A stretch of DNA of 64,000 nt from Candidatus Omnitrophota bacterium. GTDB lineage: Bacteria > Omnitrophota > Gorgyraeia > Zapsychrales > JAHFFX01. The notes below the pieces were generated by a model. That model had not been told where the DNA came from. It ran no database searches and saw nothing but the letters and a program-made list of their open reading frames with translations. The translations under genes and the position numbers were made by a program. The stretch lies in assembly GCA_023247725.1 (NCBI GenBank), contig JAHFFW010000002.1, positions 64,160 through 128,159 on the forward strand, given 5' to 3'. Below are positions 15,001-54,000 of this stretch, piece after piece (within the stretch, counting starts at the first letter, position 1; the number at the start of each line of letters is the position of its first letter).

Positions 15001-18000
15001 TGGCTCGGACTCGAGAAAAAAGCGTCACCGCCGGCGACCCGGCCATGTATTCCACGAAGCCAACGCCGGAACCGGGCGAACAGCTTGTTGTCTTGGAGGT
15101 GGATGAAAAGACCGGCAAAACCCGGATTGAGAATTTTAATAATCCCGAGGGGATAAAAGTCAGCGGTTCCGATCGGGAAATCGGGCTGGGTCAAGCGGCC
15201 AGCTTCGACAGCGATGCGATCGAGATACAAGAAGATAAACAACTTTCTTTTGACCGGAAAACGGAACGCGAGGCAGTGGAAGAATTGTCCCGGCTTGGGC
15301 TGGGAGTGGAGCACAACGGTCAGCTCATCGTCAAGCAAAGCGAGCTGGAAAAGATCGGCTATGACGCCGACTGGCAACATAACATCACCCGAAAAATACA
15401 GAGTGAAGAGGCCGGTCTAGCCGAAGATCGGAGTTTGATTAAGCAAGCAACGGAGAAAGAACTCGGGGCCGACCATCCGGTCAACCAAGGTATTGAGGAG
15501 GCTCGCTCTGAGCTTTCCAACGGAGAGAAAAAGCAATTTGATCAGATGCGAGAGCAGGGCCGGATTGTTTCTATGGAACTGGGTGAAGATATCGAAAAAG
15601 CCGAAAGCCGGGAGGCAGACCTTAAGAAGGAAGCCCTAGCCTTAGCCCTAGCTTTGCTCCATCTATCTCCCTTGGAGGCGGCGGTTTATAAGAAAAGGAT
15701 GGAGGGGCTGGAGCCGTCCTCGATGATCATTGGCGAGGGCAATGAGGCGTATATGGTGATAACCCCCAAGTCCAGGCATCAAGCCCTCCTTCAAGAGAAG
15801 CCCTCGTATAAGGCGGCGGTGCTTAATGAATGGAATGTGATTAAGGATTCCAGCCTCACTCCGGAGGCCAACATTAAGAAACAACTGGAGAAACAGGGCA
15901 AGGCGGGCAGGCGCCTGATCAGCTTAAGCCAGTTGAGATTGCGGCCGGGGTCAGATGAGGTTCAAATTCAGGGACAAAACATTCCCCGCATTAAGTCTCC
16001 TGGAGCGCAAGCTGGCTCTCCGACGGATGTGAAGCAAAAGCAAAACCAAAGCCCTATGATTCCGCAGAAGATGTCCGGTCCGCGTCAAACGCTCGACTCG
16101 CAAAAGGCGGTGGTCATTCCTTTCGATGCAAACAAGCAATTAATGATCACTCTGAGTGGAGAATCCGTCTCGTTTTTCAAATTGAAAGACGGCGCCATCG
16201 ATTTCCAAAGAAATAATGGAAATCTGCGCACCGCAGAACCTGGCCAAGTCTATGGATACAGCTTACCCGGGCAATTGGAACTGGGAATAGCTTTGAGCCC
16301 CAAAGGAGAGCTCTTGCTGTTCAATGCGGCCCCTGCTCAATCATTGGAGGTTGAAGTTCAACCGATTAAGGAGCCTTTAATACATCCTAATGATTACGAG
16401 GTGACTCATTCGGACTTGGGCGAAGACCGGGATCAAGACGGGCTAAGGCGATACAGCCCCCGCCATGTTTCTTCCGGAGATCGCGGCGTTTATCCTTTTC
16501 ACGGGGATGCTGTTAAAGTGAAAATTGAAGGCGCTTTGGTTGAATTCAAAAAAGACAAAAACGGACTGCAATATCAACGTGAGGGGGGAAGTCTCCACAG
16601 AGGAAAATCCTATAAAGTGCGCGGGTCGGACGGCGAAGTGTTATTTGATTTACAGGTTGGGCTTAATGAGCGCGGCGAGCTGGAAATCAAGAACATCGGA
16701 AAAAATGAAATCGAGACCCGCCAGCTTGACTCCGCCAAGCTCGAAAAAGGCGAAGGCAATGATACGAATTTCGCCGATCCGACCGACGCCGCGCAGGCCG
16801 AGGCGCGGGATCAGATTTCCGTTAATACGAACGACGAACGACGAACGACGAAATCCGACTCCGCGCAGGCGGACAAATTCAAAGGCTCCCTGACGATTTC
16901 GCGCGATGATGAGTCCTCGGATCGTACGCCGACCGACGCGGCGAAGGCGGAGGATTTAAGAGTGGCCCAATTGAGTTCCGAAATGCCGACGGAAGAGGTT
17001 CAGTCGCCAAGATTTGAAAATTGGAAAGCGAGATTGACCGATTCTGCGCACTCCATAAAACTGGTTTTCAACTGGAAAAAAGAAGAAAGGGCTGTAGATG
17101 GATTATATCAGCAGGCCTTGGCCGCATCGGATACCAATGCCAGATCGCAGGCCGTCGAAGGTTTAGTTCAAGCCGCGCATCGTCGAGGCCTTTCGTGGAG
17201 AAGTAGTATACCGGCATATTCGGCAAATACTTATCTAACGATGTTGTTTAGAGATCGGAAGTACACCGCCCAGGTGGCTTCCAGAATGAGCAAGCAAGAA
17301 ATTGCGGATATGATTGTAGGAAATGCCGCCTATTCTTCAGCGGACCTTGCAGCAAGATTGTCAGATTTTTCGTTGATAAGAGGGGCCTCTCATTCTTTAG
17401 CCGACGTTGGAACAATGTTGTCCGATGTACAAGATCGAGAGGACTTCCCAGAAATTCTCGCGCAGGTTGAAAAGAAAATCCAAACCCGCGCCAATGATTC
17501 AGGGCTTTCCGAGTATTCTCAGAAAAAAGTTGCTAAAGCCGCTTTGGACTATGTCCAGTGGGTGTTGAATCAGACGTCTGGGGATTCGGGAAACAATCTT
17601 CGACTTCCCCCCGCCGCAGACCGGATCGTCAAGGCCCGAAGCGTTGTGGAAAAGAATTTGAATTTTTCAGATAGACTTGGATTCTCCGTCGGCGAAGATT
17701 CGCAAAACCAGGTGAATCCGGCAACGGTTGAAGAGAAGAAGCAGGCCATGGCCCTCACTATTTTCAGGATCGCCGCTTCCCCCGGGAAAATCAATTTAAC
17801 ACAGGATCTTAATTACGTGAACCGATTTGATTGGGATCGCGTGAAGCTGTATTCGCCGGAAATCCAAAAACGATTAACCCGCGACCGGATTAATCATGAG
17901 CATGGCAAAAAAGATAACCGCCGCAAGGCGATTGTGGTTTACACCAAGGCGGATAATAATGGGGTGTTTAATAATGAGGCGGTGATTAAAGGCCTGATGG

Positions 18001-21000
18001 CGGCCGATTTTAACATACTTTTTTATGAAGTTGACGGAAATACCGATGCTGAGGTCGAAGATAATATTGTGAAGGCCTTGAAAGCGGCCACCCGGGATTT
18101 TACTGAACCGGCTGACTTTATCGATTTCGGAGCGCACGGCCCGTACACCGCCGACAGCATGAACTATGGAAAAGGAGGAGCGCTTACCGTAGGCCGTTGG
18201 CAAGCGCTAAGGGGGAAAGTTTCCGGCGCTTTGGCGGAAAAAGGACGAGTGCTGCTTGAAAGTTGTTTTACGGGCAAGGGCGGTCTTGAGCAAAGTAATC
18301 CGGCGAATATGTGGGCCATGGTCTTCCCTCAGGCCGCGGAGATTTTGGCGCCGAACAAGGCTGCTGCCGTAAAAAGCTTTGCCATTGACCGCAACAATGA
18401 AGTGACGATTGAGCATTCTCACGGAGCTTCTGTTTATCGTGCTAATCATGATCAACTGAGCCGGTTTGAAGCGTCGGTTGAGTCATCGGATATTGGAAAA
18501 CCGGTTGTGAAGAAAGTCGACGACGCGGCCCAGGTCGGCACTCCGCCCCAGATGCAAATGCGCGCCGCCGATCCCCGCAGGGAATTGTTGCGCCGGCGTT
18601 TGACCGACGCGGTGGATGCGCTGGTCATGGTCACCGGCAAGCGGGAGAGAAAATCCGCCAAAATCGAGGTGCGGGCCGCGGCTAACGCTTTGGTGGCGCA
18701 GGGAGACCGGGATTTTGTGGGAGAGAAGTTGGATGCTTTAAGCGGCCTGATCGCCGCCGATGACCGGCTGCATCCGGTGGCCGGCGGGCTGGGCGTCATG
18801 ACCGCGAAATCAACGCCGTTGCAAAACCAACAAGCGGCGGCGGCGCAGAGTTTATCGTCTGAGGAATTAGGAAATGTCGCGCAATCGATCGATGTCTTGC
18901 AAAGCGCCTTGGGAACGGAAGGCTTCTCCCGTACCGATATCTTGGATCAAATCAAGCGGGGAATGCATCAAGAGGATTTCAACGCCCACCGGCAAGCCAT
19001 TGAGCAATTAAGCGATAATAATTTGGTACAAATTAAAAATTTTGTCGACGTGGCCGACCGGCAGCAAGTGCGGGAAGGAATGGCGAATTTGTTAGGCCTC
19101 GCCCAGCAAAGGGACAATGAAAACAACCCCAGAGAGCTCAACAATGATGACCTGATGCTGGTTTTAAATCGTCCGGACACCGACGCAACGCCGGTTCAAT
19201 CTCAATCCCCCATAAAGGTCAGTCCCTGGCGGGGCAGATTGGTCATGGTGCCCAAGCTCGTCGCTGCGGTGGTTGCGGTGGCGTTGATTGTGCCGGCGAT
19301 CGCGAGTGCCGCCGGGGCGGTAGGGGAGATCGGTCCATTGGCTCAGCACCCGAATCTTCCCCCGACGGGCGATCAGATGGGGGCCCAGCCTACTCAAGAC
19401 GTGCAGCCAGTCCTCAATGTTCCGACCCAAGCGGAGATCCCGAAGTCTCCGGACATTAAACCGGTTGAATTGAAAAACGCCACAGCAGAATCGGATCCGC
19501 AGGGTTCGCCCGAGGAAGTGCGGCCAACGCCGGTGGAACCCATCCATTCCCCGATCGGTACAGAGTTAACGGCGCCAACGGCACCTGACTCTTCCGAAGC
19601 GGTTATTCCTTTGGTGGAACCGATCCATTCCCCGATCGGCACAGAATTAGCAGCGCCAACGGCGCCTGATTCTTCCGACGAAGTGGTTGTTCCTTTGGTC
19701 GAACCCATTGTCTCGCCCATTGGCACACAATTGACGATGCCGACGCCGGTGACACCGGAGCCAGCTCAAGGCACGGCGGCCGGTCAGCTGACCGATCTGA
19801 CGATGGAATCACCGGCGAGTATTGAAGCTCCCATAGCCGAGTTTCCGCTCCATGAATTACCCATGGCAAAATTATCTCCGCTATTGACTTCACCGACCCT
19901 GGATGTGGAAGCGCCGTTGGCAGAAATTCCCGACCAGGCGCCGGTGACATCCTTGGCCGAGCCGCCGGCGAATCCGCACCCCGACGGCGTGCCGGTGGTG
20001 GTAGAACAACCCGGAAAGGGTAAAGGAATAATCCAACAGCCTCCCGCACCGTCGATTTCTCAAATTTCCAAAACGAAACCGTCACCGGTCGTGGCGCAGC
20101 CCGTTGTCAAACGACCGGCGCCGGAAAAAACAAGCACCAGCACGATAGAACGGCCGCCCGCTTCCCATTCTTCCGGGACTTCTCAAACGATCACCCTGCC
20201 TCCGCCGGAGCCGCATGCGCCGGCGGTTTCCCAAATAGCCTCCGCCGATACACATTCCCCGGTCCAGGTCGATACCACTCCGCCGACGCTGGAAGAGAAA
20301 AAAGCGGGGGATAGAGATTCTCAGCACGGCGGGGTTTCGGCTAAAGAGGCCAGAGATCAATATATGAAATCCTCTAAGGCGTTTGGGGATCAATATATAA
20401 GTTATTTCTTGGATACGGGCGATCAACACCTTAAAGATGGAAATAGGAAAGCAGCGAGAGAGGCCTATGCTAAGGCCTTGCAGGCGGGAAAGACTCTCAA
20501 CGACGGTGAACATGCCCGGCTTGCCCAAAGTAAATTGGACGACCTTGAAGGCGGCCAGCCTCCTTCTTCGGAATTTCCATTTAATGCGACTGGCGCCGCT
20601 ATCACAGGGATTGGGTTGCTTGCGACCGGCCTGGCAGGTTATGGCGTCTATCGTCAACGACGGCAGCGCTCCGCGCGGAATCGTCCTAACCCAGCAAAAG
20701 CGGCCTCGGTTGCGCCCCGCCTGTCTGCGGAAATACCGGTGGAGCGGCGTCAACAACCCTTGGTTGAATGGTCCTTTGACAAGCCCAATCTGGCGCATGC
20801 CGATCCCGACAAACGTCAGGTGATGCATATTGCGCCGGATGAGGACCCTCTGATTACTTCACCGGTTTCCGGTACCGTGCATATCGGTGTTCGGGATAAC
20901 CAAGGGAATTGGACGGAAGTAGAAGATCGGCCGCTTACTTTGAATCCGCAAACCGGCCGGTATGAACTTCGCGTGACCAATCCCCGCGCCAACGTCTTTA

Positions 21001-24000
21001 CCGTTCATTGGGGCAATGATGCGCAAGCTCCAGGCTGGGATCAGCGTCCGGCGTTTGAAATTACCCGTAATGCGCCGGCTACCCAACAACAGTCGGACGC
21101 GCAGGCAACCGACTCGCGACAGCATCAGGGTACGTCGCTGGATGATACTTTAGATGCCGTGGAACGAAATCGCTTGGCCAGAGAGGAAGCTAAAGATGAT
21201 TTTAATCGGCAACACCGGCCGGAAGTCGATATTAAGAATACAACCGGAGGAAAATTCGTCGTACAAGTCGCTTATCGAGGCCGCAGTTTGGACCACAGTA
21301 TAGTTATGGTCGTCAGGGTTGGCGACAGCCGGGAGTTTGCGACGCAGGAGGAAGCCGAAAGATTCGGCGCGTTCTTGGAGAAGAACCATGGGGATCATTA
21401 TGCGGAGCATGGGGACTTAAGGAAAGGGACTTCCTTAGACCCAACCTTGGATCCGGCCACTCGGCAGAGACTGGCGAGGGAAGAAGCCCGGACAGCAGCC
21501 GCGTACACCTACACCTTGAAGGTCTCTCCAACCGACGACGGGAACTATGAGGTCAGAGGCGTTTATTGTGGGGTGAGTTTGAATGGGCAGGAGTACTATG
21601 AGGAGGCGGCGGACTCCAGCAGCACACCACCGCTGCGTTTCCTATCGGAATCGGAAGCCGTTGACTATGCCAGCCGCGGCGGACAGGATTTTTATGTGAG
21701 AGGAAGCGCCAGTACGAAAGCTTCTGGGAAAGGTGGTGGGAGCGGTTCAGAAAAATCTTCCGGTCAAGAAGCCGGAACGAGGCAAAAAATTTCCATTGAG
21801 GCCAGGTTGAAGACCGCCCGTCGCGCCGCGCAAGGGGTATTGATGGAAAACGTTCAAGAGCAATTGGATGGGTTCGGAAATCGCCTAAGTTGGGCTTTAG
21901 GCTCCCCAGGGGAGAAATCGGATAGAGATCGAGGGCTGGAGTTGCTGAGGCGCATCAAAGATCAGATTGCCGAACAATTGAAGGAGGATGCCGCGCAGGT
22001 TATCGGCTTGCCGCAAATTCACGAGCTGATGGCGTTCCCGGAGGAACGAAGGAAAATATTGGAAAAGAGCATCGGGGAGTTAAATGACTTTTTAGCAACA
22101 CTGAAGGTTCCGGAGGCGATGGAAGCTAGCCTCAATGCGTCCACTAAGAACATAGAAAGGATCATTGCTTTTGGCAACGTGGTATCAAAGGCTAGGGATG
22201 CGGAAGTACTCAATCATCAATGGAAGGACATAACCAATTTTCTTGCTGAGATGATACCGGAGAAGGAGCGGACATCCCCCTCTCCGCGTCTTGAGTTAGC
22301 CAATGCGGCGATCCAGGAGGCAACTGAGGCCCAGGCGAATGTAAGACCCGCCCCAACGCAAACCCCAACCGACGGCAACGGCGCGGGTGAAAATGGTTCC
22401 GGCGCCCGGACGACGGGGACGGGTAGTTCCATAACACCTCAAGAAAGACTCCAGCAATTAGAAGAGGAGATAACCGCTAAAACAAATGAAAAGGAGGATT
22501 ATCTTCGTCAGTTAGATAAAATTGATCCGAATTCTTCCTTAAGGACTCAGGAAGATCCGCCCGCCCCGGTCAAAGATTTACAAGGTAGAAAATTGGAAAC
22601 ACAACTTTACCGTGAAAGTGATAAAGGTCGCAGTGATACCGACCTTTATCGGCGTGTTACTCAAGCGCGGTCAAAACTAATAAGGGGTAAAGAATCGGTC
22701 TCAGGGGATTTGGATAATATTTTTAAACAGATGGCGGACCACCAAAGAGGTGGAAATCCTTTTTCGGAAGATTTAATCAATCGAGCCAATGACGCATTAG
22801 CCCAACCGCACCCCGGGGGTGAGAGTGGTTCATCGACGTCGGTAGATTTCAAGGCAGGACAGGTTATCAAAACAGCCGATGGCCGAATTTTTGTTGTTCA
22901 AGAAATTGTCAGCAAAGATGCCCCGATCAACCGCGCCGGTGTTTCGAAGGTTCGCCTTATTGAAGTTGATCATACAGGAAAGGGCTTGAGGACTAACGGT
23001 AGGATTAATCAGCAATCTCATCCTATCGAGAATGTCTCCCCGGATTCGCCTTTGTCGGTTCTGCTGGCGGGCGCGGAAATTTTAACGCCCGGGGATGATT
23101 TTTCTGACGATAGTTTGCCTTATAATGAAGCCTTTACATATCTTTTTGAACATTTGGGTTTGGTGCAGGGGCTGAAAGATCTTCCTGAGGATCAAATTGT
23201 GATGAAGGCGCGGTTAGGGGATTCGAAGGCGAAAAGCCTTTTGAAAGAAAGATCTGTGGATTGGCGGCCGCGGAATTCGCAGGGAATAGTCACCGTCCAC
23301 GCGCAGGGAGAAGGTCACGGTGGTAATTTAAAGGTCGGGGATAGATATTTTGATCATTATAAATTTTTGGATGTCAAGACAGCACCCGAAGAAGTTCCAT
23401 TAAGCCAGGCGCCTGCCGGGTTGGCGGTGGGAAATAGATTTATTATAAATGTGTCCCACCATGAGTCCGGCGAGTTAGGACAGCCTGGACATTCTAAGGC
23501 GGTAGTTTCTCTGGGGCGGGTCGTTGCCGACTCCACCGGAGCTGAGAGCGGTTCACAGACATCCGCGCAAGAAGCACAAGTAAAACTACGGAGTGAGGCC
23601 GAAAACGCGGCATGGCATGGCGTTGAATTTGAAGATCTGGCCCAGGATAGCAGAACTCCCCAGGAGGGAGTTCACCATCAGCAGGCGGCGGTTGGGGAAT
23701 ATCGTGAGGCCAGAGATCTCGATCCGGACACATTTGAATATGCGGCCATGTTAGGCGAAGCTTATGTGCGGTTGGGAAAGCTTCGGGATTTGACGCCTGC
23801 GGAGGCCCAGGAAGCCATGGGTGCCTTGCAGGCCGCCCTGAAATTGGCGAGCTCCACCAGCCAGAGTTGCGCTTCTTGCAATGAAGCTTTGAATGAATTG
23901 GGGCAAATCGTCGCTCGCCAAAAAGAATCTTCCGATCAAAGAGAGCATGCAGCGTCGGGCGTTTCCCGCGAGCAGGCCGTGGCCTTTGCCCGCACGGCGC

Positions 24001-27000
24001 TTGGAAACTATAATCCTTTAGCCGACATTGACCGCCGCATAGAAGAGAATGAAGCTAATATTAAAAAATTGCGCGAGCGTTTGAATACAATTGACCCGGA
24101 CGGTTCTTTGCTGCAATTACCCGAAAAAGATCAACCCGAAGAAGTTAGAAACGTTGGGAAAGAATTAGACCATCTCGTGCATTTCATAGGAGAAGCCTCA
24201 TTTATTAAACGCAATCGCCTGCGCATAGAGATTCACCGAGCAAGTGAAAAGGGTCAGGCCGATGGGGATTTTTACGACCAATTCATGGATGTGAGAGGAC
24301 AACTTATAAGAATAAGAATGAAAGAAGATAGCAGCTATGAGGAAGATCTGTCTGAGGAAATGAAGGATATGTATCTTGATCTAGAGCACAATAGGGGATC
24401 CGGTACTCCATTTTCTGATGAAATGATTCAATCCGCTCAAGCTTTAATGGCTCGAGTTGAGTCGGCACTCGCGCAACGACCGAAACCCGCCTCGCACCCC
24501 GGGGGTGAGAAGGTTGCCCCAACCGACGGCAACGGCGCGGGTGAAAATGGTTCCGGCGCCCGGACGGCAGATGATATCATCGGGGGTATTCGGGATATTG
24601 CCGGCAGCATTATTCAGTCGTCGCAACGAACCGATGTTATAAATAACCCGGAAATGATCCAGCAAATGAAAGATGAGAGTGACGCCCTTCACCGGCAATT
24701 AGCGGAAGCAGGCCGCGGCAAACCCGTATCCGATGTCACTCTCAGTCAGCTCCGGGGAGGAGACGTTATTCAAGTCAATGGTGAGTTGTATATTGTTAAA
24801 GAAGTATCCGATGGATCGGATGGGGTAGCAAAGGGAGCGATGGTGATTGGCAGAACAAGAGGAGGTACATTGAAGGGCATTTTTGATGGGGGCCTGCATG
24901 TTGGGGGAGAAAGATTTAAGAGGGTAGAGGTGCGAGAGGCCGCGCCGGGGCCCGCCGCGCCGGAAAATGATTTAGAGTTAGCGAAAGATCTGCAGCAGTT
25001 GGACCATGACCGGCAACATTCTGCCGCAGTCCGCAAAGCCGCGCCCACGCCGGCGCAGGGCCTGGTTGAGGATTTTCTCTATCGAGGTACAGGTAGACGA
25101 AACTCGAGAAGCACCGCGATCGTTCGCCAGGCCAATGACGAATTCGCTGACGCCGATGCGGAAGTTGCCCGAAAAATTGTCGCGGAAATCCGATCCGGAA
25201 ACACGGAATTCGAGGAAGTTGACGCCTCCGTTCCTCTGGCGGTGGGTCAGGTCGTGATGGTCGGTAACATCGCCATTGTCGTCGCCGATTTAAATAATGG
25301 GAAGCCCCTGTACGTCAGTTCTCCTCTGCAAACGGAGGCAAGATCTGCCATAGCTATTCTATCCGAATTCTCTGCTGAAGTGATTGCGAGGGGAAAAAGA
25401 TACCAGGTGAAAAGTGGGACGGAAGTCAGTGCCGCACAGGCCGGACCCGCCTCGCACCCCGGGGGTGAGAAGGTTTTACCGGAACCCACCGCGCAGGAAG
25501 CGCAGGCGGAAACTTCCTTGCGAAGATCGCGAGCGCTTGAGCCCGTGTTGCAGAAACTTGAATCCTTTGCGGGTCAGGACGGGCATATTTCGAGCCTGGT
25601 GGAAGGATTAAAGGGAACAATGGCCGAGGGCACCGCAGGCACGGATGAGGAGTATGCCAAACAACTCATGGAGAGGTTGAATAGTTTATATCGGGCGAAG
25701 AAATCTTCGCCGGCCAAGGTTTACGGGGAAGCCTTTGCAATGCTTCAGTCAGTTATCTTGCAAAGCACCGGGGGAACAGTGATTGCTCCCAGCGTCGGTA
25801 CGAAAGCTTCAAGCGGATCAAGAGAAATGCATGCGCTTTATTCGACAACGGGGGAGTCGTCTCCCACCGGAAAATGGGTCGTCCATGAGACTGTGGACTT
25901 GGGGTTAAAAGTAGCGGGCGATAGGGTTTTAGTTCCGGCCAAAGTCATCATTGCTCCGGATGTGGAGCCCACTGCTAAAGCACCGGCTTCCCAAACGGAT
26001 GACGAGATCGAGGCAGAAGTGCGGAAAGAGCGTGCAGAGCAGAAAGCGCAGGAAGAACGGGAACAAAAAGCCGCGGACATGTTCTCTGCCGGCATGCACA
26101 AGATGGAAGGTCATCCTGAAATAGCCATCGAGGACTTTCGACAAGCCCTGAGCCTTACCAAGGATCCCAGAGATCAGCAAACCTACAAAGGAAGCATTGC
26201 TATGGCAGCCAGCAGGATTGGCCATAACAAAAATGAGGAAGGCCGCCTCCGGGAAGCGATAGAATATTTCCGGGAAGCGGTTGATTTGGATCCAGGAGAA
26301 AAGCATTATAGAGAACAGCTGGCCAATGCGGCGGTTGCAGCCGGACAGGTTTTCCTTGCGAGTGATCACGGTCGGGCTGCCAAATTTTTTGAGGAGGCCG
26401 TTCGGCACGCTCCAGATAATCAAGATTTTATGAAATTATTAGATTACGCTAGAAGCCAGCTGGAAAAAAACGACGAACCCGCCTCGCACCCCCGGGGTGA
26501 GAGTGAGAGTGGTGAGGAGGTTGCCGCTACTCCCGTCGATCAGCCCCCCGTTAATGACAATACCAAAGTTATCACCGAGACCGGCCCCGATGGGAAAAAG
26601 TATTATGTACGTGTCCGGGAACCAGCAGAAACTTCAACGGGTTCGGCTCCCGTTATAGAAGTAAAGACGCCGGAACCGGCCGGCAACGGTGCAGAAAAGT
26701 CCAAGGAAAGGCTATCCGGGGCGGACTCTACAATACCCGCTCCGGCGGCGCTGCCCCGTGCCCCGTCCTTCGCGACGATCCCAGGTGTAACGGAGCGGAT
26801 TATGGGCCTGCCGGTGGCGCATGACCATACCGCCTCGTTGGAGGCATTGCGAACTCATCTTGCGGCGGATGCCCGGGAAGCGCGTAATGCTTTGGCCTCT
26901 GCCGCTTCGCCGGCTTCCGCCGTCTCAGCTTCGGCCGGCAGTTCCGCCGACGTACGGCCGGCGAGCGTAGACTTAGAGGCTTTGCATCAGCAAAGAGCGG

Positions 27001-45000: not shown

Positions 45001-48000
45001 GGGCGTTTCTTACGTTATCCCGATTGATCAACGACCTTAAGGCCAATGCAAAACTGGAACCTGAAGAATATGCCTTGCTTGGAGATCATTTTTTCAATTT
45101 GGGGATTATGTTGAGTCCCAAAATGGATGAGATTCCAATTCGGGATAAGGCCCACTTTGACCACCTTATGATCGACGATGGAAATCTGCAATACCTCGTA
45201 GATTCGAAAATTGTAGATGGCCTTGCTTCCGTAAATGCGGCCCAGGTGACCAGTTTTGACGACATGGTCAACCACCCGCAGAAATTGCTGCCTGTCCTGG
45301 AAGAGGCCGCCGCGGCGGTGGCTCCAGAGAGTCTATATCAAATGGCTCACGATATCGTGAACACTCAGTTGTCCGGTCTGGCAGAGAAATTAAGAGCAGG
45401 TCTTGCCGGAGTTTTGGGCGAACTGCATATAAACCCCCTGGAAAGAACGGATATCATCCTAATTAGTTCGGAAATGCAAGGTGATGAGATTCGTCAACAT
45501 ATCTCTGCAGAAACCGCTCATATGCTGGCCCGAAGGCTCACGTCTCCTATGGAACAACCCCCGGCAGCTTTTCTGGAGGCCCTTGTTGAGAATCGGCCAA
45601 TGAAGGACACGGATCCTGGCGTAGATGAGGCCTATGAGGCGCTTTTGCAAGACTATCTTGGCTATAAGGAAATACTAAGCCCTGCCGAGCAGGAAATCAT
45701 ATCACATATTACCCGGTCTCTGGATCGCATGAGCGACGCCGAATTGAGCCAGGCGTTGGAGCATTACTCGATTAGTGAGGAGGAACAAAGATTTAGAGAG
45801 ACTTTCGGGTTTGCTCAGGATACGCATCCAGTGGATGCCCGGTATAGCCGGGTCACCAATGCTGCCCGCAACAGCGAAGTTGTGCTGACCGATGTTTTTG
45901 AGAAAATGGGTTATTCCGAGCCCCGCAAAATGGCCAGGGAATTTTTGGAGCAAGATCCGCGTTATATTTCCCATGCCGTAGGCAGGACAATGGGAAACCG
46001 AATGGAAGATAAGGTGGATAAGGTCGGCGGGGATATTAAGCTTGCCATTCGGATTGCCGGAGACATGGCGCGGGAGGCCCCGGAATCCTTGCTAGACCAT
46101 CGGGATTTTGAAAAAGAATTCAACCGCCGCGCGGACGATCAAGATTATGTGGCCCGCCTGATTAAAGAAATTGCAGCCAGCGATCGCGAAGTGGCGCTGG
46201 TTCCGGCGTTCACCGCCGACAAGGCCCAGATCGGCACCCCAAGCGACAAAGATCATAAAGTTTCCTGGGAGCAGGAACCCAATCGCGAAGCCGCTGTGGC
46301 GCGTTCCTCTCAACAGAGTGATGCCGCTCAGGTGAACCCCAGAGAAGAAAGTTCTCAATCGAATGAACGGACCCCGGAGAGGGATCAGGTGCTGAATGAA
46401 AATGGGGAAGACAGCGTTCATGTAGGGGGTCTTCTTGCTGCTCCGCACCGGGCGGTGAATTTGCGAAGTTCATTGATTAATCTGTCCAGGCAGGCTGATG
46501 CACAGCCAGACTTCTTCAGTTCGGTTCTGAACAATACGGAAAAAATGACCGTGCATCCGGAAACCGCTTATGAATTCGTGAAGTGGATTACGCAAACGAA
46601 ATACGATGTTAATAAATTGCCAAAGATCTCAACGGCGATTCAAAAGATAAGACGATCCAAAGAAACGATCAAGGATTTACTTTCCGGTGAAGATTCGATC
46701 GTGAAGGTGCGGATGGCAGCGGAGATCATGAAGTCGGCCCAGTCGGGCGCGAATCAGAAAAGTTTTAAGGACCTCCTTAAGTATTTTGGAGAATTAAAGC
46801 AATCGGGCGTTCTTAAATCCGAGGATATTGAGCGGGCCATTCGGCTCGTCGCAGGACACAATCCAGCTCAGTTGATCGCGGCGGAGGCCACCCGAACCTA
46901 TTCTCAGGAGGACAATATGCCGGCCCTGCGGGAGTTGGCCGCCAGACATAAGGGAGAAATCCAGACGATCCCGCAAGCGGATCTGGTTGCGGATGCGAAC
47001 CGTGAAAAAGGGACTTTGATCGTTGGAGGAGAAGGCAGTGGCAAATCCACGCTGACTTATGCCCTGGTGAAGAAAGGATTTAATTATGGCGGGCAAGGCA
47101 TGGATATGCTGCGGACCGGTTCTCATCTGATTGCCGGCGTGAGCCAAGAGACTAGGTCCTATCCTCTCGAGTTTCGTTCCGGTGAGGCGGAGCCTGGCGA
47201 TCTCACCCGGGATCGTCCGGTCGAGACCATTCCGACGGCGCCTCGATTCGTGCCGGTTAGAGTGATCGTTCAAATGTTGAAAGCGCCTCAATTAACGAAA
47301 CCGGAGACGACCATTCGTAAGGCGACGGATACCGAAATCGCCGGATCCAGGGTTGCTGAGACCTGGAATTCCCTGAATCGTCCGTCGGTCGATTATCTGG
47401 TGGAAGTCCGGATGCCAGAAAAAGTGACCGATGAACAGATGGCGGTGGTCGCCCGCGATATCATGCGCGCCGACGCCGCGATGGCGGTGAGATCGCACAA
47501 TGAGGATTCCAATCCTTCCTATAAGCCCACGAACCAGACGGCCCAGACTAGGCCCTTTGACCTTACCGAGTTGACCAACCAAAAGATGGCGCTGCGGGAT
47601 ATCGAGCTTCAGAATTTGAATTTCCGGCCGCGGCGGTACGATGACCGGCGCGACGGGATGGTTGATTTCAATTTAAGCAGCGCGATGAATGACCAAAATC
47701 TTTCTGAACCTGCCGATGAGATTCCGCTTGCCGAACATCCGACCCTAGGCCTGGTCGCGCTGGCGCAAGTGGATCATTTTGTTATGGTGGAAGCCAGTCC
47801 CAGTCAAACTATCGGAATTTACTCTCAGGAACATGTGATCTGCCTGCTGGGCGATATTCGTGCGGAAAAGGTCTATGCGGACGGCCATCGGGAGACGATC
47901 GTTATTGGACACGCGCACATCAATCCGAACTCTCCAGCGGACCGCAGCGGCCAGAAGGGGCCGGCCTTCGCCAAGTTTGAGAGAGTTCTGGACTACCTCG

Positions 48001-51000
48001 GACAAACGCATCGTGACGCCTCGGGCCAAGAGTTCAAATTCGAAAACATTCAGATGGCTCTGGATATGGATGGGGAGTTCCGCGGCCTCGGTTCCAGAGA
48101 AGCGATTCTCGAGGCGGTCCGCCAGCGGAACATCACGGTCGTGGCTGAACGTGTCCGTGACCGGAATAATCCCAAGCAGGAGGAAGCCGATTCCTTTGTC
48201 AGCGCGCGCTATGCGGTCGTCGGCCATCATCCGGAGAATGACCGGACTTACGATATCCATCCGGTTATTTGGCAAACTGCCGCTAACGATGCGGGGAGTA
48301 CCGAACGCAAGCAGTCTATGTCTTTGACTACATCGGCGGATCTGAGAAGGATTGCCGAAACGCGACAGGCCGAGAGGACCCACCTTGCTGGTTCAGTGAT
48401 AGCGGCCTCAAGCCAGCGCCCGCAAGAAATTATGGCGGCGTTCGACGCCGCCTCCGTCGGCGTGCCGCGCGAGGCCTGGAAAATCACCTCGGAAGTCGAA
48501 ATCTATAGAGAGCAGATCGAGCGTTATGCGAAGATAAGAGATTCAATCGCTTCCGGAGATCTGAAAGTTAACCAGCAATTAGTCGGGACGATTTTGGGCG
48601 CCTTCCAGAAAGCCAGGGCCGAGCAAGAACCCACCGTCAGTGAATTGACCGATCTGCTGCGATTGGCGGCGCAAAAGAATTCAGCTGCCGTCCCGGCGGC
48701 GGAGGCGAAACTTGTTATTGCTGAGGCCGAACGGCAGGCGAAAGTCCAACTGGTGTCCCCCATCGCGACGGCTAAACCCGCGGCCAGCGTGTCGGCGCCG
48801 GTCCAGCTTTCTTTGTGGAACGAGGAGCCACCACAACCAAAAGCCGAGCAGTTATCGCTGCTGGATTTCCGGGAGGGGATAGAGTTAATGAGGCTATTCT
48901 CTCGAAAAAGGGACGTGGATCGCCAAGAGATCTTGGACACCGCGCAACGGATCCTCAGTCGAGAGCAGTACCAAACTTTTGTCAGTAGGATTGTTCCAAG
49001 AGTCGACCAATGGGCTGCTGGGAATTTTAAAAGGGCAAATTATAAGCTCGTCTATGATGTCCTTACGGATATGGTCAATCGGAAGGAACCGCGGAGCGAA
49101 TATGAATATATCTCCGATGAAGACATCGCAAATACTCTCAAGATCCGCAGAGATTACAAGGAAAAATTGCCAGGAATTCTCCAAAGCACCTTGGAATCGG
49201 AGAGGACGAGATTAAAGAAACTGGGCGTGGTTGGCGTGGAATTGATTGGGACCGCTGCTCAAGATCTTGAGACATTGCAGGTAAATTTTTTCTCGGCTCT
49301 TCATGATGCGTTCGGGAAAGCGGGAGATATTAAAGAACTCATTCCTACCGTGCCCGCAATTCCTGGCGTTTCTCCTGTGGTCATGGTTTCTGATGCTCCG
49401 GTGGGTATCAGGTTCTTGTTGCCTGACGCCGCCTCCGTCGGCAGCCAGCGCGAGGAGAAGGAAACGACTTCCAAGACGGAAACCGACCGGCCGGATTCGG
49501 TCTCTGTCGGCGCGCCGCAGCGAGAAGCTAGTCATATTGCCGATCGGGATGAACTTCCGGGTTCACCCAAGATCCCTCGGAGATCATTTTTTACTGCGAT
49601 AGCGGCGCCTTTCGTTTTGGCATCATCGGGGATCAGGGACCGTGCCCAGGATACTCGGGAGCGGCTGCGAGAACAGGTGCAACGTTTGCGCCAGGCCATG
49701 GAGCGGTTTAACAACAACACTAGAGCGATAAACAGCGCCAATACCATGGCTTCGGCTCTTCAAAATCGAAGATTAGCGGACAGCTATTCCCAGGCGACCA
49801 GAGAAATAGGATCAAGCAAACTGCTGGATAACGATATGGTACGCACCAGCCGGGATGAACTCGTTATTTCCGTGGGTGATCATTTTACTGAGGTAGGGCC
49901 TAACGATCAGCTCCTGATCATCATCTCCGGGCCTGCGGCGCAGATTTGGAGTGTCGTTCCAGGACTGGAGAATGATCGGCAGGTCCGTTATGTGCCGCTG
50001 ACGGTCGACCAGGGCCTGAACAATGAACAGAATATGCGCGAGCTGATCGACATCACTCGCTATTGGGGATATTCGGGCCAAAGGCCATTGGAGGATTTTT
50101 ATCGGGATCGTCAGAGAGAAAGTACAGATCGACGGGTTTTGATGGTGGGTCTGGAAGAATTTGGTTCCGGGCCCCGGCAGGACCGTAAAGAGCAGGCCGT
50201 TAAGCAGTTGGATGAGCTGATTAAGGACTACAATCCGTCGAGCATCCTTTACCTCGTCAATCAGACCGATCCGAATGGGCTGGTGAATACGATCCGCGGG
50301 CAGCGACAAGCCCCCAATTCCATCGAGGCGTTTCTTGCCAGGCAGTACTTGAAAGGAATCAAAATCGGGGTCAACAATTTTAACCGGCCGTTGGGAGACC
50401 TTTATTTTGCGGAGCCGGGGGGAAGATTCAGGTTCGCCCCGGAGACGCCCTACCAAAAGCCGCGCTACATTCAAATACCGGCGTCACAAAGAAGGATTGC
50501 GAGAAGAGACGCGTTCAAACTAGCGATCCTCGATTTGGCAAATGTCGATCGACAAGAGCAAGCAAGGATCCGTTTCGCCGAACCGAATACTGCTACGCAG
50601 GCGACGGCTCGCTTTAGTGTTCCTTCCGACTCCGCGATGGCGGAGAAGGCGACAACGAACGGATTGCCAGAAGATGCGGATCTGAGGAGGCGTGCCGAAG
50701 AGCGCACGATTTCCGAAAGGCCGACGGTGGAACAAGCCGGCGCCCGGATGATTCAACCCACCGACCTGTCCGGCGTAGCCAAACGCGCCGTGCCTGCCGG
50801 CAGGCAGGAAAGCAATTCGGCGAAGCCGGACGCCGCGATGGCGGAGCGGCGTGATGGTGAGTCTCTGCCCATTTCCGAGAGACCGTCGATAGATCAGGAA
50901 ACCCCGACCAAATTCGACATTCACTTTGCCTTCGATAATTTTCGTAAGCTGCCTTCGCATGTGCGGGAAATCTCGGATCAAATTGGGCAATCCGATATTG

Positions 51001-54000
51001 TGGTCGTGCAAACTCCCGAAGTATTCGACGAAATTTTTAATGCGGTTTCTCACGGCCTGTCTCCTGCCGAGGGGATGACGGCCATTCAACAGAAGGCTCA
51101 AGAAGAAAGAATTCAACTCAATTTGGATTCACCCCTGAAGGCCTTACTCACGGCGATCCATGGGTCCGGGAAAACCATTGTAGGTAATCGTCTCCCCAGT
51201 GACCGGATTCGGTCCTCGAATGAGGAAGCGTTTACCGAAATTACCCAGGCGCTGAACCGGGGTATCACCAGAGGCGACATGAGAAGCGCGGTCAAGAGTT
51301 ATAAAATACTTACCGAAAAGATGGGTGCGGCGACGGCGGAGCATGGCAGAGACATGGTGGCCACCATTCAAAAGGTTCAGCAGCAATTTCCCGATAAGAA
51401 GAAGATTTTGGTCATCGACGGGCAATCCAATACCGCCCCCTACATGAATTTGACGCTCAACCAGGATCTATCCTCCCAGCAGGGTGTTGCTCAAATCACG
51501 CGGGAATTTTTGGATAATCCTACAACTCCGGTGGTGTTCTCTCTGGACGACGCCCTCAAGTGGGATATCGCATTTCAGGAATTGAAGATTAAGCCGGCAA
51601 AAGAGTTGAGCGATCAGGACGTCATTCCGGCGCTGGTTTCATTGATATTGGTGAATTCCATCCCCGAGTCTCAGAGAAGTGAAATCGATTTTGCTGGGAT
51701 CAACAAAATCGCCATAAGAATTGATTCGATGGATAAGCTTTCTGGACTGCAGCGGGAAATGCAGGCGCATCCGATAACGAGTCACGAAGATTTCCAGAGT
51801 AGAGTTTACTTCTGGCTGGTGAAGGGAGATTTTGCCAGACCAATGGAAATTAAGCGGGTTCTGGGTTTTGACGCCGCGATGGCGCAGCGGCGCAAAGAAG
51901 ATTCGACCATTTCTTATGAACCGACGCAGACAGAACAAACGGCCACGGCCCGGCACTCCGACGCCGCGATGGCGGCGCGATTGCAAAGCCGGGATTTAAC
52001 GACCGCCGATCCGACACAGGATCAGTCGGCAGTTATTGCGAGCCGCGCGATTCAAAACGACCTTGAGAAGGCTTTACGGGCCATTGGGCATATTTACAAG
52101 TCTAGTGATTCTGAGGCGCTTTCTAAGATGTCCTTGGATCTCGTCAAGAGCGCAGTTTTCAATGAAGTTTATGGGGCGTCGCCAGATCATTTTATTGCCG
52201 CACTTTCTCTCGCGGAGTCGCCGGCCCGCAACTGGGCTACCGCTTGGTTAAGGCAAAGATATAATGCTTACGGTCGGACTGAGATGTTCCGGTATCCTTC
52301 TCAAGACAGGGAATTCGAAGTCGCTTTAGGTACCCTGGAACAAAAGCCGGCGCCGTTTAAGGCTGTATTATTGGGTTCATCAAACGGAGATGACCCGGTG
52401 ACCAAGGCCTTGACTATGGGGGATCACCCGAACTTGCAAGGGCGGCGCATTGATGTGGTGGGTGTCGACATCAGTGCTCAGGCGATCGCGAAAGCAAAAG
52501 AAAATCTGCAGTCAGGCAAATTCCGGATCGATGCGGAATATATCCAATATCTTTTCGAGTACGAAGGTTTCAATGCGCTTCCGGAGGCCATCAAGAGCAG
52601 ATTGGCGCAGGGCGGAGATGTCTCCGAACAGATCAACAGCTGGATCGCTGAGCGGTTGCCCGCCTTGCAACAGGAAATCCGTTTCGTAGAAGCCAGTATT
52701 CTCGAGGAAGCGTCTTGGAAAGAAGTCCGAACTGCCGATGCGGTATTCATCAACTCAATTTTGTATGAAGTTCCTAAGTCGGCTCAAGCTGAGTTTTTCG
52801 AGGGTCTGAAGAGAAACATGAAACCCGGAGCTTTCTTATTCTTATCGACCGATTACTTTAGGGATGGCGAGTTTGAAAGTAGTTGGTTGGATAAAAAAGC
52901 TTATGGGGTCTATCAGGTCAAAGATGCCGCGATGGCGCAGCGGCGCAAAGAAGGTTCGACCACTTCTTATGAACCGACGCAGAGAGAACAATCGGCCACG
53001 GCCCGGCACTCCAACGCCGCGATGGCGGCACCGCGCGAGAAAGAATCGACAACTTCCTATAAACCGACGGAGAGCGAATCATCGGCCGTGTCCGCGAGTC
53101 GTTTGGTGAAATTGACACCATCTGGTATCCTGAAATTCGCGGCCAGAGTGGCGCCGACGAGGGACTTGCGCGAGCGCGTCATTCAGGGATTGGGCGCGAA
53201 GGCCTTAGCATCGTCCGCACCGGCGACTAGGGCGCTGCGCCGGCTGGCTCAATCGCAGCGGCCGCAGATAGCGCAACCGGCTTTTGACCAATTGCTGGCC
53301 AATGTCCGACAGGGCCATTACCGTTCAGTTGAAGAATTGGTGAACCTGGCGGAGCAATTTAGGGTCAGCGATTTAATGAAGGAATTTTCGCAAGCCACGA
53401 TTGGGCTTGGTGTGGCCGGGCTCGATCGACAGCAAACTATTTCCGACCGTCATTGGTCTCAAGTTCTGGGTACTGGAAGTTATGGCCACAGGGATCATAT
53501 TTTATGGCTCGCGGAAAATGTTACAAATGATCCTCGAAGACCGCAATTGGCCGAGGCCACGATGAAAGCCCTCGAAACGCTGGCCTTAAGAGGGCATCCC
53601 GATGCGATTTCGGCGTTGAGTCAAATGGTCAATTCATCTCATCCACAACAAGCCGAGCGGGCGCAAACCGTCCTCGCGATGGCGGCGATCAGCGGACACC
53701 AGTTGGCTCAATATGAAGTGGCTAATAAGGTTGAAGGCGACCCATTCATTTTAGAAAGAGAAGAATTCATGCGGGCTAATAGAGCTGTGGCCCAGATCGT
53801 GACAGAAATCGTTTCGGATCGCCGCAAATTGACTTATCAGGAGGATGAAGTGAATCGCCGGGGTGATTACACGGGCAGAAAGACGCCCCGGTTTGACCAA
53901 TCGGTCCATCGAGATCTCATGGAGCAGATTAAACGTGCCATTGTTCACGGAACGCCGCAGGGCCAGGCGCTCGCCATTCAAGCCTTGGAGCGCAGCGGCA

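Follow-up and report, generated by a model that had tools for sequence, protein, structure and literature searches.

Recurrent D-A-A-x-x junction units at module ends in a giant Omnitrophota reading frame: possible processing sites of a polyprotein-like precursor

Whether bacterial giant proteins, measuring from 10,000 to 147,000 amino acids (aa), act uncut or in pieces is the question addressed here. In two studies, the giant proteins of Omnitrophota are described as mostly sequence-unique, and it is suspected that they are cleaved into several products, possibly by C39 or S8 domains, at cleavage points that are unknown (10.1101/2023.11.21.568195; 10.64898/2026.06.07.730766). The lack of known cleavage points is said to block even the computational dissection of such proteins (10.1101/2023.11.21.568195), and internal signal-peptide calls within them have been dropped as artefacts of chunking (10.64898/2026.06.07.730766). 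The word “linker” appears in neither paper, and the word “motif” appears once in the former (10.1101/2023.11.21.568195), where a brief mention of motifs is possible, and not at all in the latter (10.64898/2026.06.07.730766). Here, we describe a short peptide, hereafter the core, that recurs as the head of a composite junction unit along a 64,000-nucleotide (nt) stretch of DNA from a Candidatus Omnitrophota bacterium (contig JAHFFW010000002.1, positions 64,160 to 128,159, forward strand). This whole stretch is referred to as the window, and nucleotide positions are counted from its first letter. We tentatively propose that a giant, polyprotein-like precursor is processed at these units.

Frame +3 of the window is a single open reading frame (ORF) of 21,332 codons that contains zero stops and overruns both ends, while the remaining five frames hold 470-1,203 stops each; the window thus lies wholly inside one giant gene. 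The ORF resembles those of other Omnitrophota giant proteins in exceeding 21,000 codons, in being mostly dark to Pfam, in its methyltransferase and TPR content and in carrying a cluster of membrane helices. With at least 21,332 aa and helices at aa 19189-21052, it falls within the definition of a giant protein as one of more than 10,000 aa with membrane helices. It differs from many members in that SecA-DEAD, C39, S8 and dockerin domains were not found by Pfam within the window; the gene continues past its ends, and they may be encoded there. Viral polyproteins, such as those of picorna-like viruses cut at 3C or 3C-like sites, share with this ORF its length, a tight and small-residue-rich consensus of ~5-7 positions at the boundaries between functionally unrelated products and a preference for Gln at one position. 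Unlike them, the sequence considered here is a cellular DNA gene more than 10 times longer, its unit has two parts joined by a fixed spacer and can recur in tandem, no chymotrypsin-like or cysteine protease was detected in the window, and its cleavage is putative. In MARTX toxins, the linkers between effectors are cut at simple Leu-X sites by an internal cysteine protease domain (CPD), which releases the modules. The present protein is likewise a very large bacterial one in which unrelated modules are joined by unstructured linkers. In contrast to MARTX toxins, it shows no Pfam match to Peptidase_C80/CPD and no RTX repeats in the window, contains only 10 Cys in its 21,332 residues, uses a D-A-A-x-x pentapeptide rather than Leu-X, and includes some modules with Tat-like (twin-arginine) or Sec-like signals of their own. 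Viral polyproteins and MARTX toxins are thus the nearest analogues in function, but the defining proteases of both were not found in the window.

The core, D-[AGS]-A-[QMS]-[VAT], occurs in 40 copies between nt 12738 and 62508. Its mean expectation was 0.98 in 300 whole-sequence shuffles and 300 shuffles of 60-residue blocks, with maxima of 5 and 4, respectively, and both types of shuffle rule out chance or low complexity as its source. An unbiased k-mer count returned DAAQ, AAMA, DAAMA, DAAQV, DAASV and DSAQV as the sole enriched 4- to 6-mers of the whole protein. The consensus is also tight: when position 2 is freed, 40 of 41 matches retain A, G or S, and the corresponding fractions are 40 of 46 for Q, M or S at position 4 and 40 of 42 for V, A or T at position 5. 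The 40 cores form 27 clusters (Table 1) spaced 177-2,342 residues apart, many at 285-450; these are ordinary bacterial protein sizes, which we count in favor of a polyprotein.

A sequence-only reading of the window had pointed to five recurring linker motifs, and nearly all of those it listed are present at, or a few bases off, the positions given; the observation turns out to be stronger than stated. DAAMA, DGAMA or DSAMA is found at nt 29895, 29925, 31455, 38154, 47472, 50628, 50829, 51870, 51960 and 52923; VTSEMPT-like peptides at nt 16974, 31377, 36252, 38190 and 41268; DLSGVA-like peptides at nt 31398, 36171 and 50763; ADP[TN]R at nt 29124, 29196 and 31500; and D[AS]AQV at nt 12738, 14868, 14931, 32991, 33045, 36069 and 46320. 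Two entries require correction, the DAAMA placed near 53008 being a degenerate NAAMA at nt 53016 and the D[AS]AQV placed at nt 45240 being NAAQV only. The proposed extent of 16780-53100 was too narrow, and the proposed 15-20 recurrences too few, for a core of the span and number given above.

Rather than five separate motifs, as had been supposed, these peptides are parts of one composite junction unit. Its second element, box 2 (AD[EPD][RTNQ][RKQ]), occurs in 10 copies against 1 expected; all ten lie within 16 residues of a core, and six of them exactly 15 residues downstream. The motifs [ST][SY]E[MKR]P, PTD[AGS]A and DLS[GA]VA are also tied to cores. A unit of ~21-24 residues is laid out as the core, ~10 variable polar residues and a box 2 of the form AD[EP][RT][RK] or [ST]E[MKR]P[TSR], which often runs straight into the next core (..EMPT-DGAQT, ..ADPT-DAAQA), and the regions nt 14868-14996 and 29079-29315 contain two to three tandem units. 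Conservation is one-sided: upstream it is at noise level except at -1, and downstream there is signal at +5/+6 and from +14 to +17. Arg, Glu and Gln abound in the linkers. Five restricted positions with weaker preferences at -1, +5 and +6 make up a footprint as large as that of protease subsites or of a short linear motif. Searched across the whole ORF, Pfam gave no family that matches a junction unit, and NCBIfam, applied to nt 3-27902, matched no junction and yielded nothing beyond the Pfam matches.

Where homology or a model delimits domains, the core stands at the C-terminal edge of a folded module. A HMMER scan of 1.84 billion proteins, made with aa 16800-18000 as the query and without a profile, returned only 12 distant matches, and these cover exactly two inter-junction segments (query residues 166-458 and 573-817). 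In the alignments, homology stops at ..RVLGF/DAAMA and ..GVYQVK/DAAMA, 0-2 residues before the core. The two best matches, P0001 and P0002, come from metagenome-assembled genomes of Candidatus Omnitrophota and are 26-31% identical over one module; the distant homologues themselves carry no core. An AlphaFold2 model of aa 16960-17289, built from a 6-sequence alignment (pLDDT 76.7, pTM 0.72), places the end of the last helix of the first module 2 residues before the core. The rule that modules end at cores is thus defined by homology at two junctions, one of which is also confirmed by the model. Both methyltransferase domains of the ORF are bounded by consecutive junctions. Ahead of the first core of a cluster, the hydrophobic fraction does not leave its background of 0.27-0.28; past the last core, it falls to 0.18 over ~25 residues and then recovers. 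Motif sites also have lower FoldIndex values than sites drawn at random (p = 0.003). The claim that the motifs sit between unrelated modules accordingly finds support in the two homology-defined domain ends, the model, the drop in hydrophobicity and FoldIndex.

Four twin-arginine segments (FSRRSFLK.., FRRIGMK.., MFRRWMSR.. and PRRSFFT..) lie 12-51 residues past a core. These, as well as a fifth, Sec-like segment at nt 19245-19310 without a core nearby, were judged by sequence pattern. The segment at aa 4648 (FSRRSFLKGAMGAALTPRATA) has the full S/T-R-R-x-F-L-K consensus, a mildly hydrophobic h-region and an A-x-A end, and the composition of the protein would yield only ~0.003 matches to [ST]RRxF[LI]K by chance; the segments at aa 9773, 12746 and 16524 match the Tat pattern in part, with the RR pair, an h-region and a small-x-small end. 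The zone up to 60 residues downstream of a core makes up 9.4% of the protein, and the chance that four of the five signal-like segments should fall within it is ~4e-4 (binomial). The four have a positive N-side, all five are oriented N-in like cleavable signals, and no membrane helix that would bring the chain back is predicted between one and the next; an uncut chain could hardly accommodate such an arrangement. Moreover, the four RR segments are found 4,600-16,500 residues into the ORF of the window, none of them at a protein N-terminus, and it is this deep internal position that motivates a model of cleavage: as judged from their sequence, such segments could act as signals only after cleavage or internal initiation. 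Three of the five open with Met. No Shine-Dalgarno-like sequence precedes those three Met codons, which disfavors the separate translation of signal-led modules. The polyprotein option of the sequence-only reading thereby gains support of an indirect kind from the four twin-arginine segments, cleavage as such being putative.

Our preferred explanation, which we hold only tentatively and would not yet bet on, is that a polyprotein-like giant precursor is processed or recognized at the junction units, which are kept alike by the exchange of junction DNA. It is ranked first because protein-sized, mostly unrelated modules, a tight consensus at their ends and targeting signals after some junctions are all found in the same ORF. 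In outline, a folded module would end, the core would begin within 0-2 residues, and a polar spacer, box 2 and the next module would follow. The core, probably with box 2, would most likely serve for recognition and cleavage, splitting the precursor into separate proteins. Some of the released modules would be exportable, their new N-terminus lying close to a signal of twin-arginine or Sec type, and others, such as the S-adenosylmethionine (SAM) methyltransferases, would remain cytoplasmic. Junction DNA would be homogenized by duplication or gene conversion with the first base of the core as the left breakpoint.

Candidates for an embedded protease are suggested by four HExGH motifs, against ~0.03 expected from the composition of the protein. 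One of the four modules that contain them, that with HEFGH, has any match at all, namely to Peptidase_M48/M91/M78 with E = 0.0024, below the Pfam cut-off, and classical serine-protease signatures are absent from the ORF. From these sequence patterns it is possible that the HExGH modules are embedded zinc proteases, and the embedded proteases that had been invoked as processing enzymes are in this respect hinted at by the four motifs and the sub-threshold M48 match, no family rising above the cut-off. A bolder version of the proposal would see in the giant ORF a true cellular polyprotein, an operon-like single frame cut at D-A-A-x-x into at least 27 proteins, perhaps by its own HExGH modules, with some products exported through Tat or Sec and with private codes such as LASN[EQ] serving elsewhere. 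We consider this version doubtful, though possible.

The private code just named comes from P0012, one of the distant matches and a multi-enzyme protein of 2,949 aa encoded on JGI metagenome contig Ga0315293_10000074 (L001, 10001-18850) with CheR, GGDEF, HATPase, Metallophos and PrmA domains. The motif LASN[EQ] occurs in it in four copies, against 0.05 expected, and nowhere else in the 28.8-kb locus. Three of the four copies stand just before or between Pfam domains, and the fourth directly precedes a Tat-like signal, RRTFLK (SMPRRTFLKAAAGAVVAAAAG). P0012 is thus like the giant ORF in combining CheR-like and PrmA-like methyltransferase modules, a private inter-domain motif and a Tat-like signal after one copy of it; it is unlike the giant ORF in the sequence of its motif, in having only four copies, in its ordinary “large” size and in a similarity limited to the methyltransferase module. 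We regard it as a small independent example of the same junction grammar.

The sequence-only reading had left three options unranked, namely recombination joints, protease or polyprotein sites and disordered sites of anchoring or modification, and these are partly supported overall. The first of them, in its exclusive form, would hold that the junctions are joints of recombination or duplication only, marking the boundaries of DNA cassettes whose linkers are gene-converted and whose modules were gained or reordered by recombination at short stretches in common, so that conservation of the peptide is a by-product in what is a flexible spacer. Between the junctions at nt 51870 and 52923, DNA identity is 27% upstream and 94% over a 107-nt repeat whose left edge is the first base of the core; in the pairs 48444/49425 and 29895/50829, identity likewise begins at that base. 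The codons of the core are biased as well (GAC 68% versus 38% gene-wide; GCC 80% versus 38% at position 2; GCG for 14 of the 16 Ala at position 5; overall test, p = 0.0016), GC content at third codon positions (GC3) is raised to 0.83 in the core from 0.55 overall and ~0.6 in the flanks, and the Q, M and S variants are clustered along the gene (p = 0.024). Taken together, the breakpoints and the clustering indicate that the evolution of junctions is also a concerted one, driven by gene conversion or duplication with the core as the left edge, and the recombination option draws direct support from the pairwise identities and biased codons. A second linker family, whose 31-nt and 50-nt copies show 100% identity and which is built on a near-palindromic DNA element read in two frames, also favors joints. 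Nevertheless, most pairs of junctions are alike solely in the core and box 2, and yet all five positions of the core are restricted. Position 2 alternates between GCC, TCC and GGC, so that the residue remains small despite changes at the first and second base, and codons often differ synonymously. The claim that the motifs often share the same DNA is partly right, codons being biased by position yet variable at synonymous sites. The strict DNA forms of the core, GACGCCGCG, GACGCCGCGATGGCG and GC[CG]GC[CG]CAGGT, occur only on the + strand in frame 0, never out of frame and, for GACGCCGCG, not on the other strand; a looser pattern gives 33 + strand matches, all in frame 0, and 4 matches on the reverse strand. 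Residue-preserving changes at position 2, synonymous variation and in-frame-only occurrence together argue for selection on the peptide. A neutral scar would be unlikely to fall 0-2 residues past domain ends and repeatedly before signal peptides, and 15 nt in common is little for homologous recombination to act on. We therefore rate joints alone as rather unlikely. A DNA-level repeat element, whether REP-like, MITE-like or a recombination site, was rejected as a candidate for the core, which lacks the independence of frame and strand that such an element would have.

The 10-residue spacing of core and box 2 in six of the ten cases would also suit a partner with two pockets or a small structural element, and the junctions might then be uncleaved docking motifs, bipartite linear motifs in disordered linkers that bind a chaperone, a translocon or a scaffold or that pack on the preceding domain. 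The polar, hydrophobic-poor segments in which the motif lies fit this idea, and tandem units would add avidity; it leaves unexplained, however, the four same-orientation internal signal-like segments after junctions, it has no known partner, and the core abuts the domain end instead of standing in the middle of a linker, all of which makes docking improbable. Post-translational modification, for example by the embedded PrmA/PRMT-like and CheR-like domains, draws on the presence of two protein-methyltransferase-like modules in the same ORF and on the abundance of Arg, Glu and Gln in the linkers. It emerges as the weakest of the options raised by the sequence-only reading and as very improbable, in that Q, M and S at the variable position have no modifiable group in common, only Asp and Ala are invariant, and nothing links the methyltransferases to the motif; to our knowledge, the core is also unlike the target consensus of CheR. 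A signal at the level of RNA or translation, in which internal starts, mRNA processing sites or pause sites would merely be read as peptide, could account for the GC3 and codon bias of the core, for ATG in 12 cores and GTG in 8, and for the Met that opens three of the five signal-like segments. But the Met and Val of the core stand at different positions, Val is GTG in 8 of 21 cases only, no Shine-Dalgarno-like sequence is found upstream of the Met codons, substitutions at the first and second base keep small residues, and a stop-free frame of 64 kb implies read-through translation, so that we regard this as the least probable of the explanations considered. Start-codon relics or internal initiation as the main explanation were rejected for the missing Shine-Dalgarno-like sequence and the inconsistent positions of Met and Val, and glycosylation sequons, sortase-type and PEP-CTERM-type signals and 2A-like skipping for a mismatch in residue pattern.

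Several observations weigh against the processing reading itself. Cleavage at the core, like its scissile bond, is something that we infer, and no protease family rises above its curated Pfam cut-off in the window. The fixed spacer of 10 residues to box 2 would be superfluous for a simple cleavage site, and the codon bias and exact DNA breakpoints could mean recent descent or gene conversion and not selection at the site. The core is missing from the first 12.7 kb and from nt 22052-29079, where other repeated linkers are found, and its context is poor at nt 58698 and 62508. In the EreA/ChaN/TIKI-like module, two conserved His are replaced in this copy, and a single-sequence AlphaFold prediction for the 1,020-aa stretch aa 14440-15460 (pLDDT 36) was uninformative on domain boundaries. 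Relatives are wanting as well: an index of 5.8 billion proteins held no match for aa 9600-11100 or aa 14300-15500, and no orthologue or second carrier of the core was found in the protein, contig and GTDB searches. The same index held no match to an alignment of the 40 junctions, and collections of genomes, metagenomes and viral contigs held no locus encoding a relative of aa 14300-15500. A degenerate DNA scan of GTDB genomes for DAAMA[EQ]RR gave 119 single, seemingly random matches and no locus with more than 3 cores or a long ORF.

Beyond the junctions, the ORF offers little to profile searches. The Pfam scan was almost empty, with matches to TPR at ~nt 26,200, to two SAM methyltransferases (PrmA/PRMT-like at ~nt 43,880-44,170; CheR-like at ~nt 52,280-52,850) and, faintly, to PG_binding_1. 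A sequence search of the PDB returned PrmA/PRMT-like methyltransferases only for nt 40503-54902 and no match for nt 27003-41402. The sole membrane-embedded region of the window is a group of ~10-12 hydrophobic helices at nt 57570-63200, within which a low-complexity stretch rich in Pro, Ala and Thr is found at ~nt 62280-62650. One domain has a paralogue inside the ORF: nt 30135-31265 (aa 10045-10421) and nt 44796-46205 (aa 14932-15401), in two different inter-junction modules, are 36-37% identical in two blocks, and both copies stop 23-38 residues ahead of a core. Short hydrophobic tails, LALAALAAV, LALAVLAAV and LILAALAAAV, are present at nt 11535-11570, 12684-12720 and 14817-14850, 5-15 residues ahead of junction cores, and resemble what might be left of C-terminal anchors or sorting signals in proteins that were once separate.

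Linkers of other kinds are also repeated. The second family, [P]ASHPGGE[KS], occurs at nt 22809, 24495, 25455 and 26487, in a region without the D-A-A core (22799-26507), and is built on near-palindromic DNA, CACCCCGGGGGTGAGA, which occurs 5 times on the + strand where 0.04 would be expected. The copy at nt 14786 (14776-14806) is read in another frame as TLTPGVRGG, its TPGVRGG preceding the hydrophobic tail at 14817-14850; being read in two frames, CACCCCGGGGGTGAGA behaves as a DNA-level element, unlike the core. The 31-nt copies of this family at nt 24485 and 25445 show 100% identity. An exact 50-nt direct repeat (nt 22363-22412 and 24517-24566) encodes PTDGNGAGENGSGART in two otherwise different linkers and suggests recent gene conversion or duplication. 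In the core-free N-terminal 12.7 kb, a 57-nt unit encoding P-S-D-A-[EQ]-Q-D-x-S-P-[EQ]-A-V occurs three times at nt 2022-2753, with 79-81% identity, and may be a third type of linker. On the 3' side of the Sec-like segment, an adjoining tandem 81-nt repeat (nt 19532-19678) encodes VEPIHSPIGTEL... in two DNA copies that are 89% identical, with a third, weaker peptide copy near 19680.

Table 1. Junction clusters and other features of the giant ORF, by nucleotide position in the window.
Feature	Position	Strand	Basis
Giant stop-free ORF carrying all junctions	3..63998	+	stop count
HEFGH, zinc-site-like; module with weak Peptidase_M48/M91/M78 resemblance; candidate protease	12018..12032	+	
Cluster 1: DSAQV (12738), DGASV (12825), box 2 IADERK between	12738..12890	+	
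Cluster 2: DAASA, 10 residues, TADERK	13875..13940	+	
Signal-like FSRRSFLKGAMGAALTPRATA, Tat consensus; RR 27 aa after core 13875	13947..14009	+	
Cluster 3: two tandem 21-aa units, DSAQV..IADERR and DAAQV..IADDRQ	14868..14996	+	
Cluster 4: DAAQA, DSAQA, degenerate PTDAAKA, SSEMPTEE	16785..16995	+	
Cluster 5: DAAQV..AADPRR	18522..18587	+	
Cluster 6: DAAQV	21987..22052	+	
Cluster 7: three tandem units, DAAQA..IADPNRR, DGAMA..IADPTRK, DGAQV..TAEPQRK	29079..29315	+	
Signal-peptide-like FRRIGMKALLVGALMAIPAFASA, directly after cluster 7	29322..29390	+	
Cluster 8: DAAMAERRIT, then DAAMT..FADERQR	29895..29990	+	
Cluster 9: DGASV..VTSEMPTDLSGVA..DAAMA..LADPTR	31335..31520	+	
Cluster 10: PPTDAASA	32052..32117	+	
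Cluster 11: DAAQV, DSAQV	32991..33110	+	
HELGH, second HExGH	35379..35393	+	
Cluster 12: DAAQV..ADLSAVAK..DGASV..VTSEKPR	36069..36281	+	
Cluster 13: DGAMA..VTSEMPT-DGAQT	38154..38240	+	
Signal-peptide-like MFRRWMSRLAVPVLTTVLSGSA; RR 12 aa after core 38211	38241..38306	+	
HELGH, third HExGH; in module opened by signal-like segment 38241	40263..40277	+	
Cluster 14: DGAMV..FDPNDR; VTYEMPQ 54 aa downstream	41109..41290	+	
Cluster 15: DAASV, DAAST; upstream of PrmA/PRMT-like methyltransferase module	43374..43535	+	
Cluster 16: DAASV; downstream of PrmA/PRMT-like methyltransferase	44391..44456	+	
Cluster 17: DAAQV	46320..46385	+	
Cluster 18: DAAMA	47472..47537	+	
Cluster 19: DAASV; DNA identity with 49425 junction from first base of core	48444..48509	+	
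Cluster 20: DAASV	49425..49490	+	
Signal-like PRRSFFTAIAAPFVLASSG, twin-arginine; RR 51 aa after core 49425	49575..49631	+	
Cluster 21: DSAMA..ISERPT..PTDLSGVAK..DAAMAERR..ISERPS	50628..50894	+	
EreA/ChaN/TIKI-like fold module, aa ~16966-17287; ends 2 residues before core	50895..51869	+	homology, model
Cluster 22: DAAMAQRR..SYEPT..DAAMA..TADPTQ; 107-nt start repeated at 52923	51870..52025	+	
CheR-like SAM methyltransferase module, aa ~17373-17639; ends ..GVYQVK directly at core	52122..52922	+	homology
Cluster 23: DAAMAQRR..SYEPT..(N)AAMA..SYKPT	52923..53119	+	
Cluster 24: DSASV	54339..54404	+	
Cluster 25: DAASV	55983..56048	+	
Cluster 26: DSAQV; inside membrane-segment region, weakest context	58698..58763	+	
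HEYGH; adjoining hydrophobic helices of C-terminal membrane cluster	61218..61232	+	
Cluster 27: DAAQA; Pro/Ala-rich low-complexity stretch, weak context	62508..62573	+	

The junction code described here rests on one orphan sequence, and its interest is high but unproven. A code that can be computed would tell metaproteomic searches which sites to inspect, supply defined peptides for testing cleavage and show where giant ORFs may be divided ahead of structure prediction. If the code should be a recombination joint only, it would show giant genes growing by the addition of cassettes. Furthermore, the internal signal-peptide calls in giant proteins that are now discarded as artefacts may be real.

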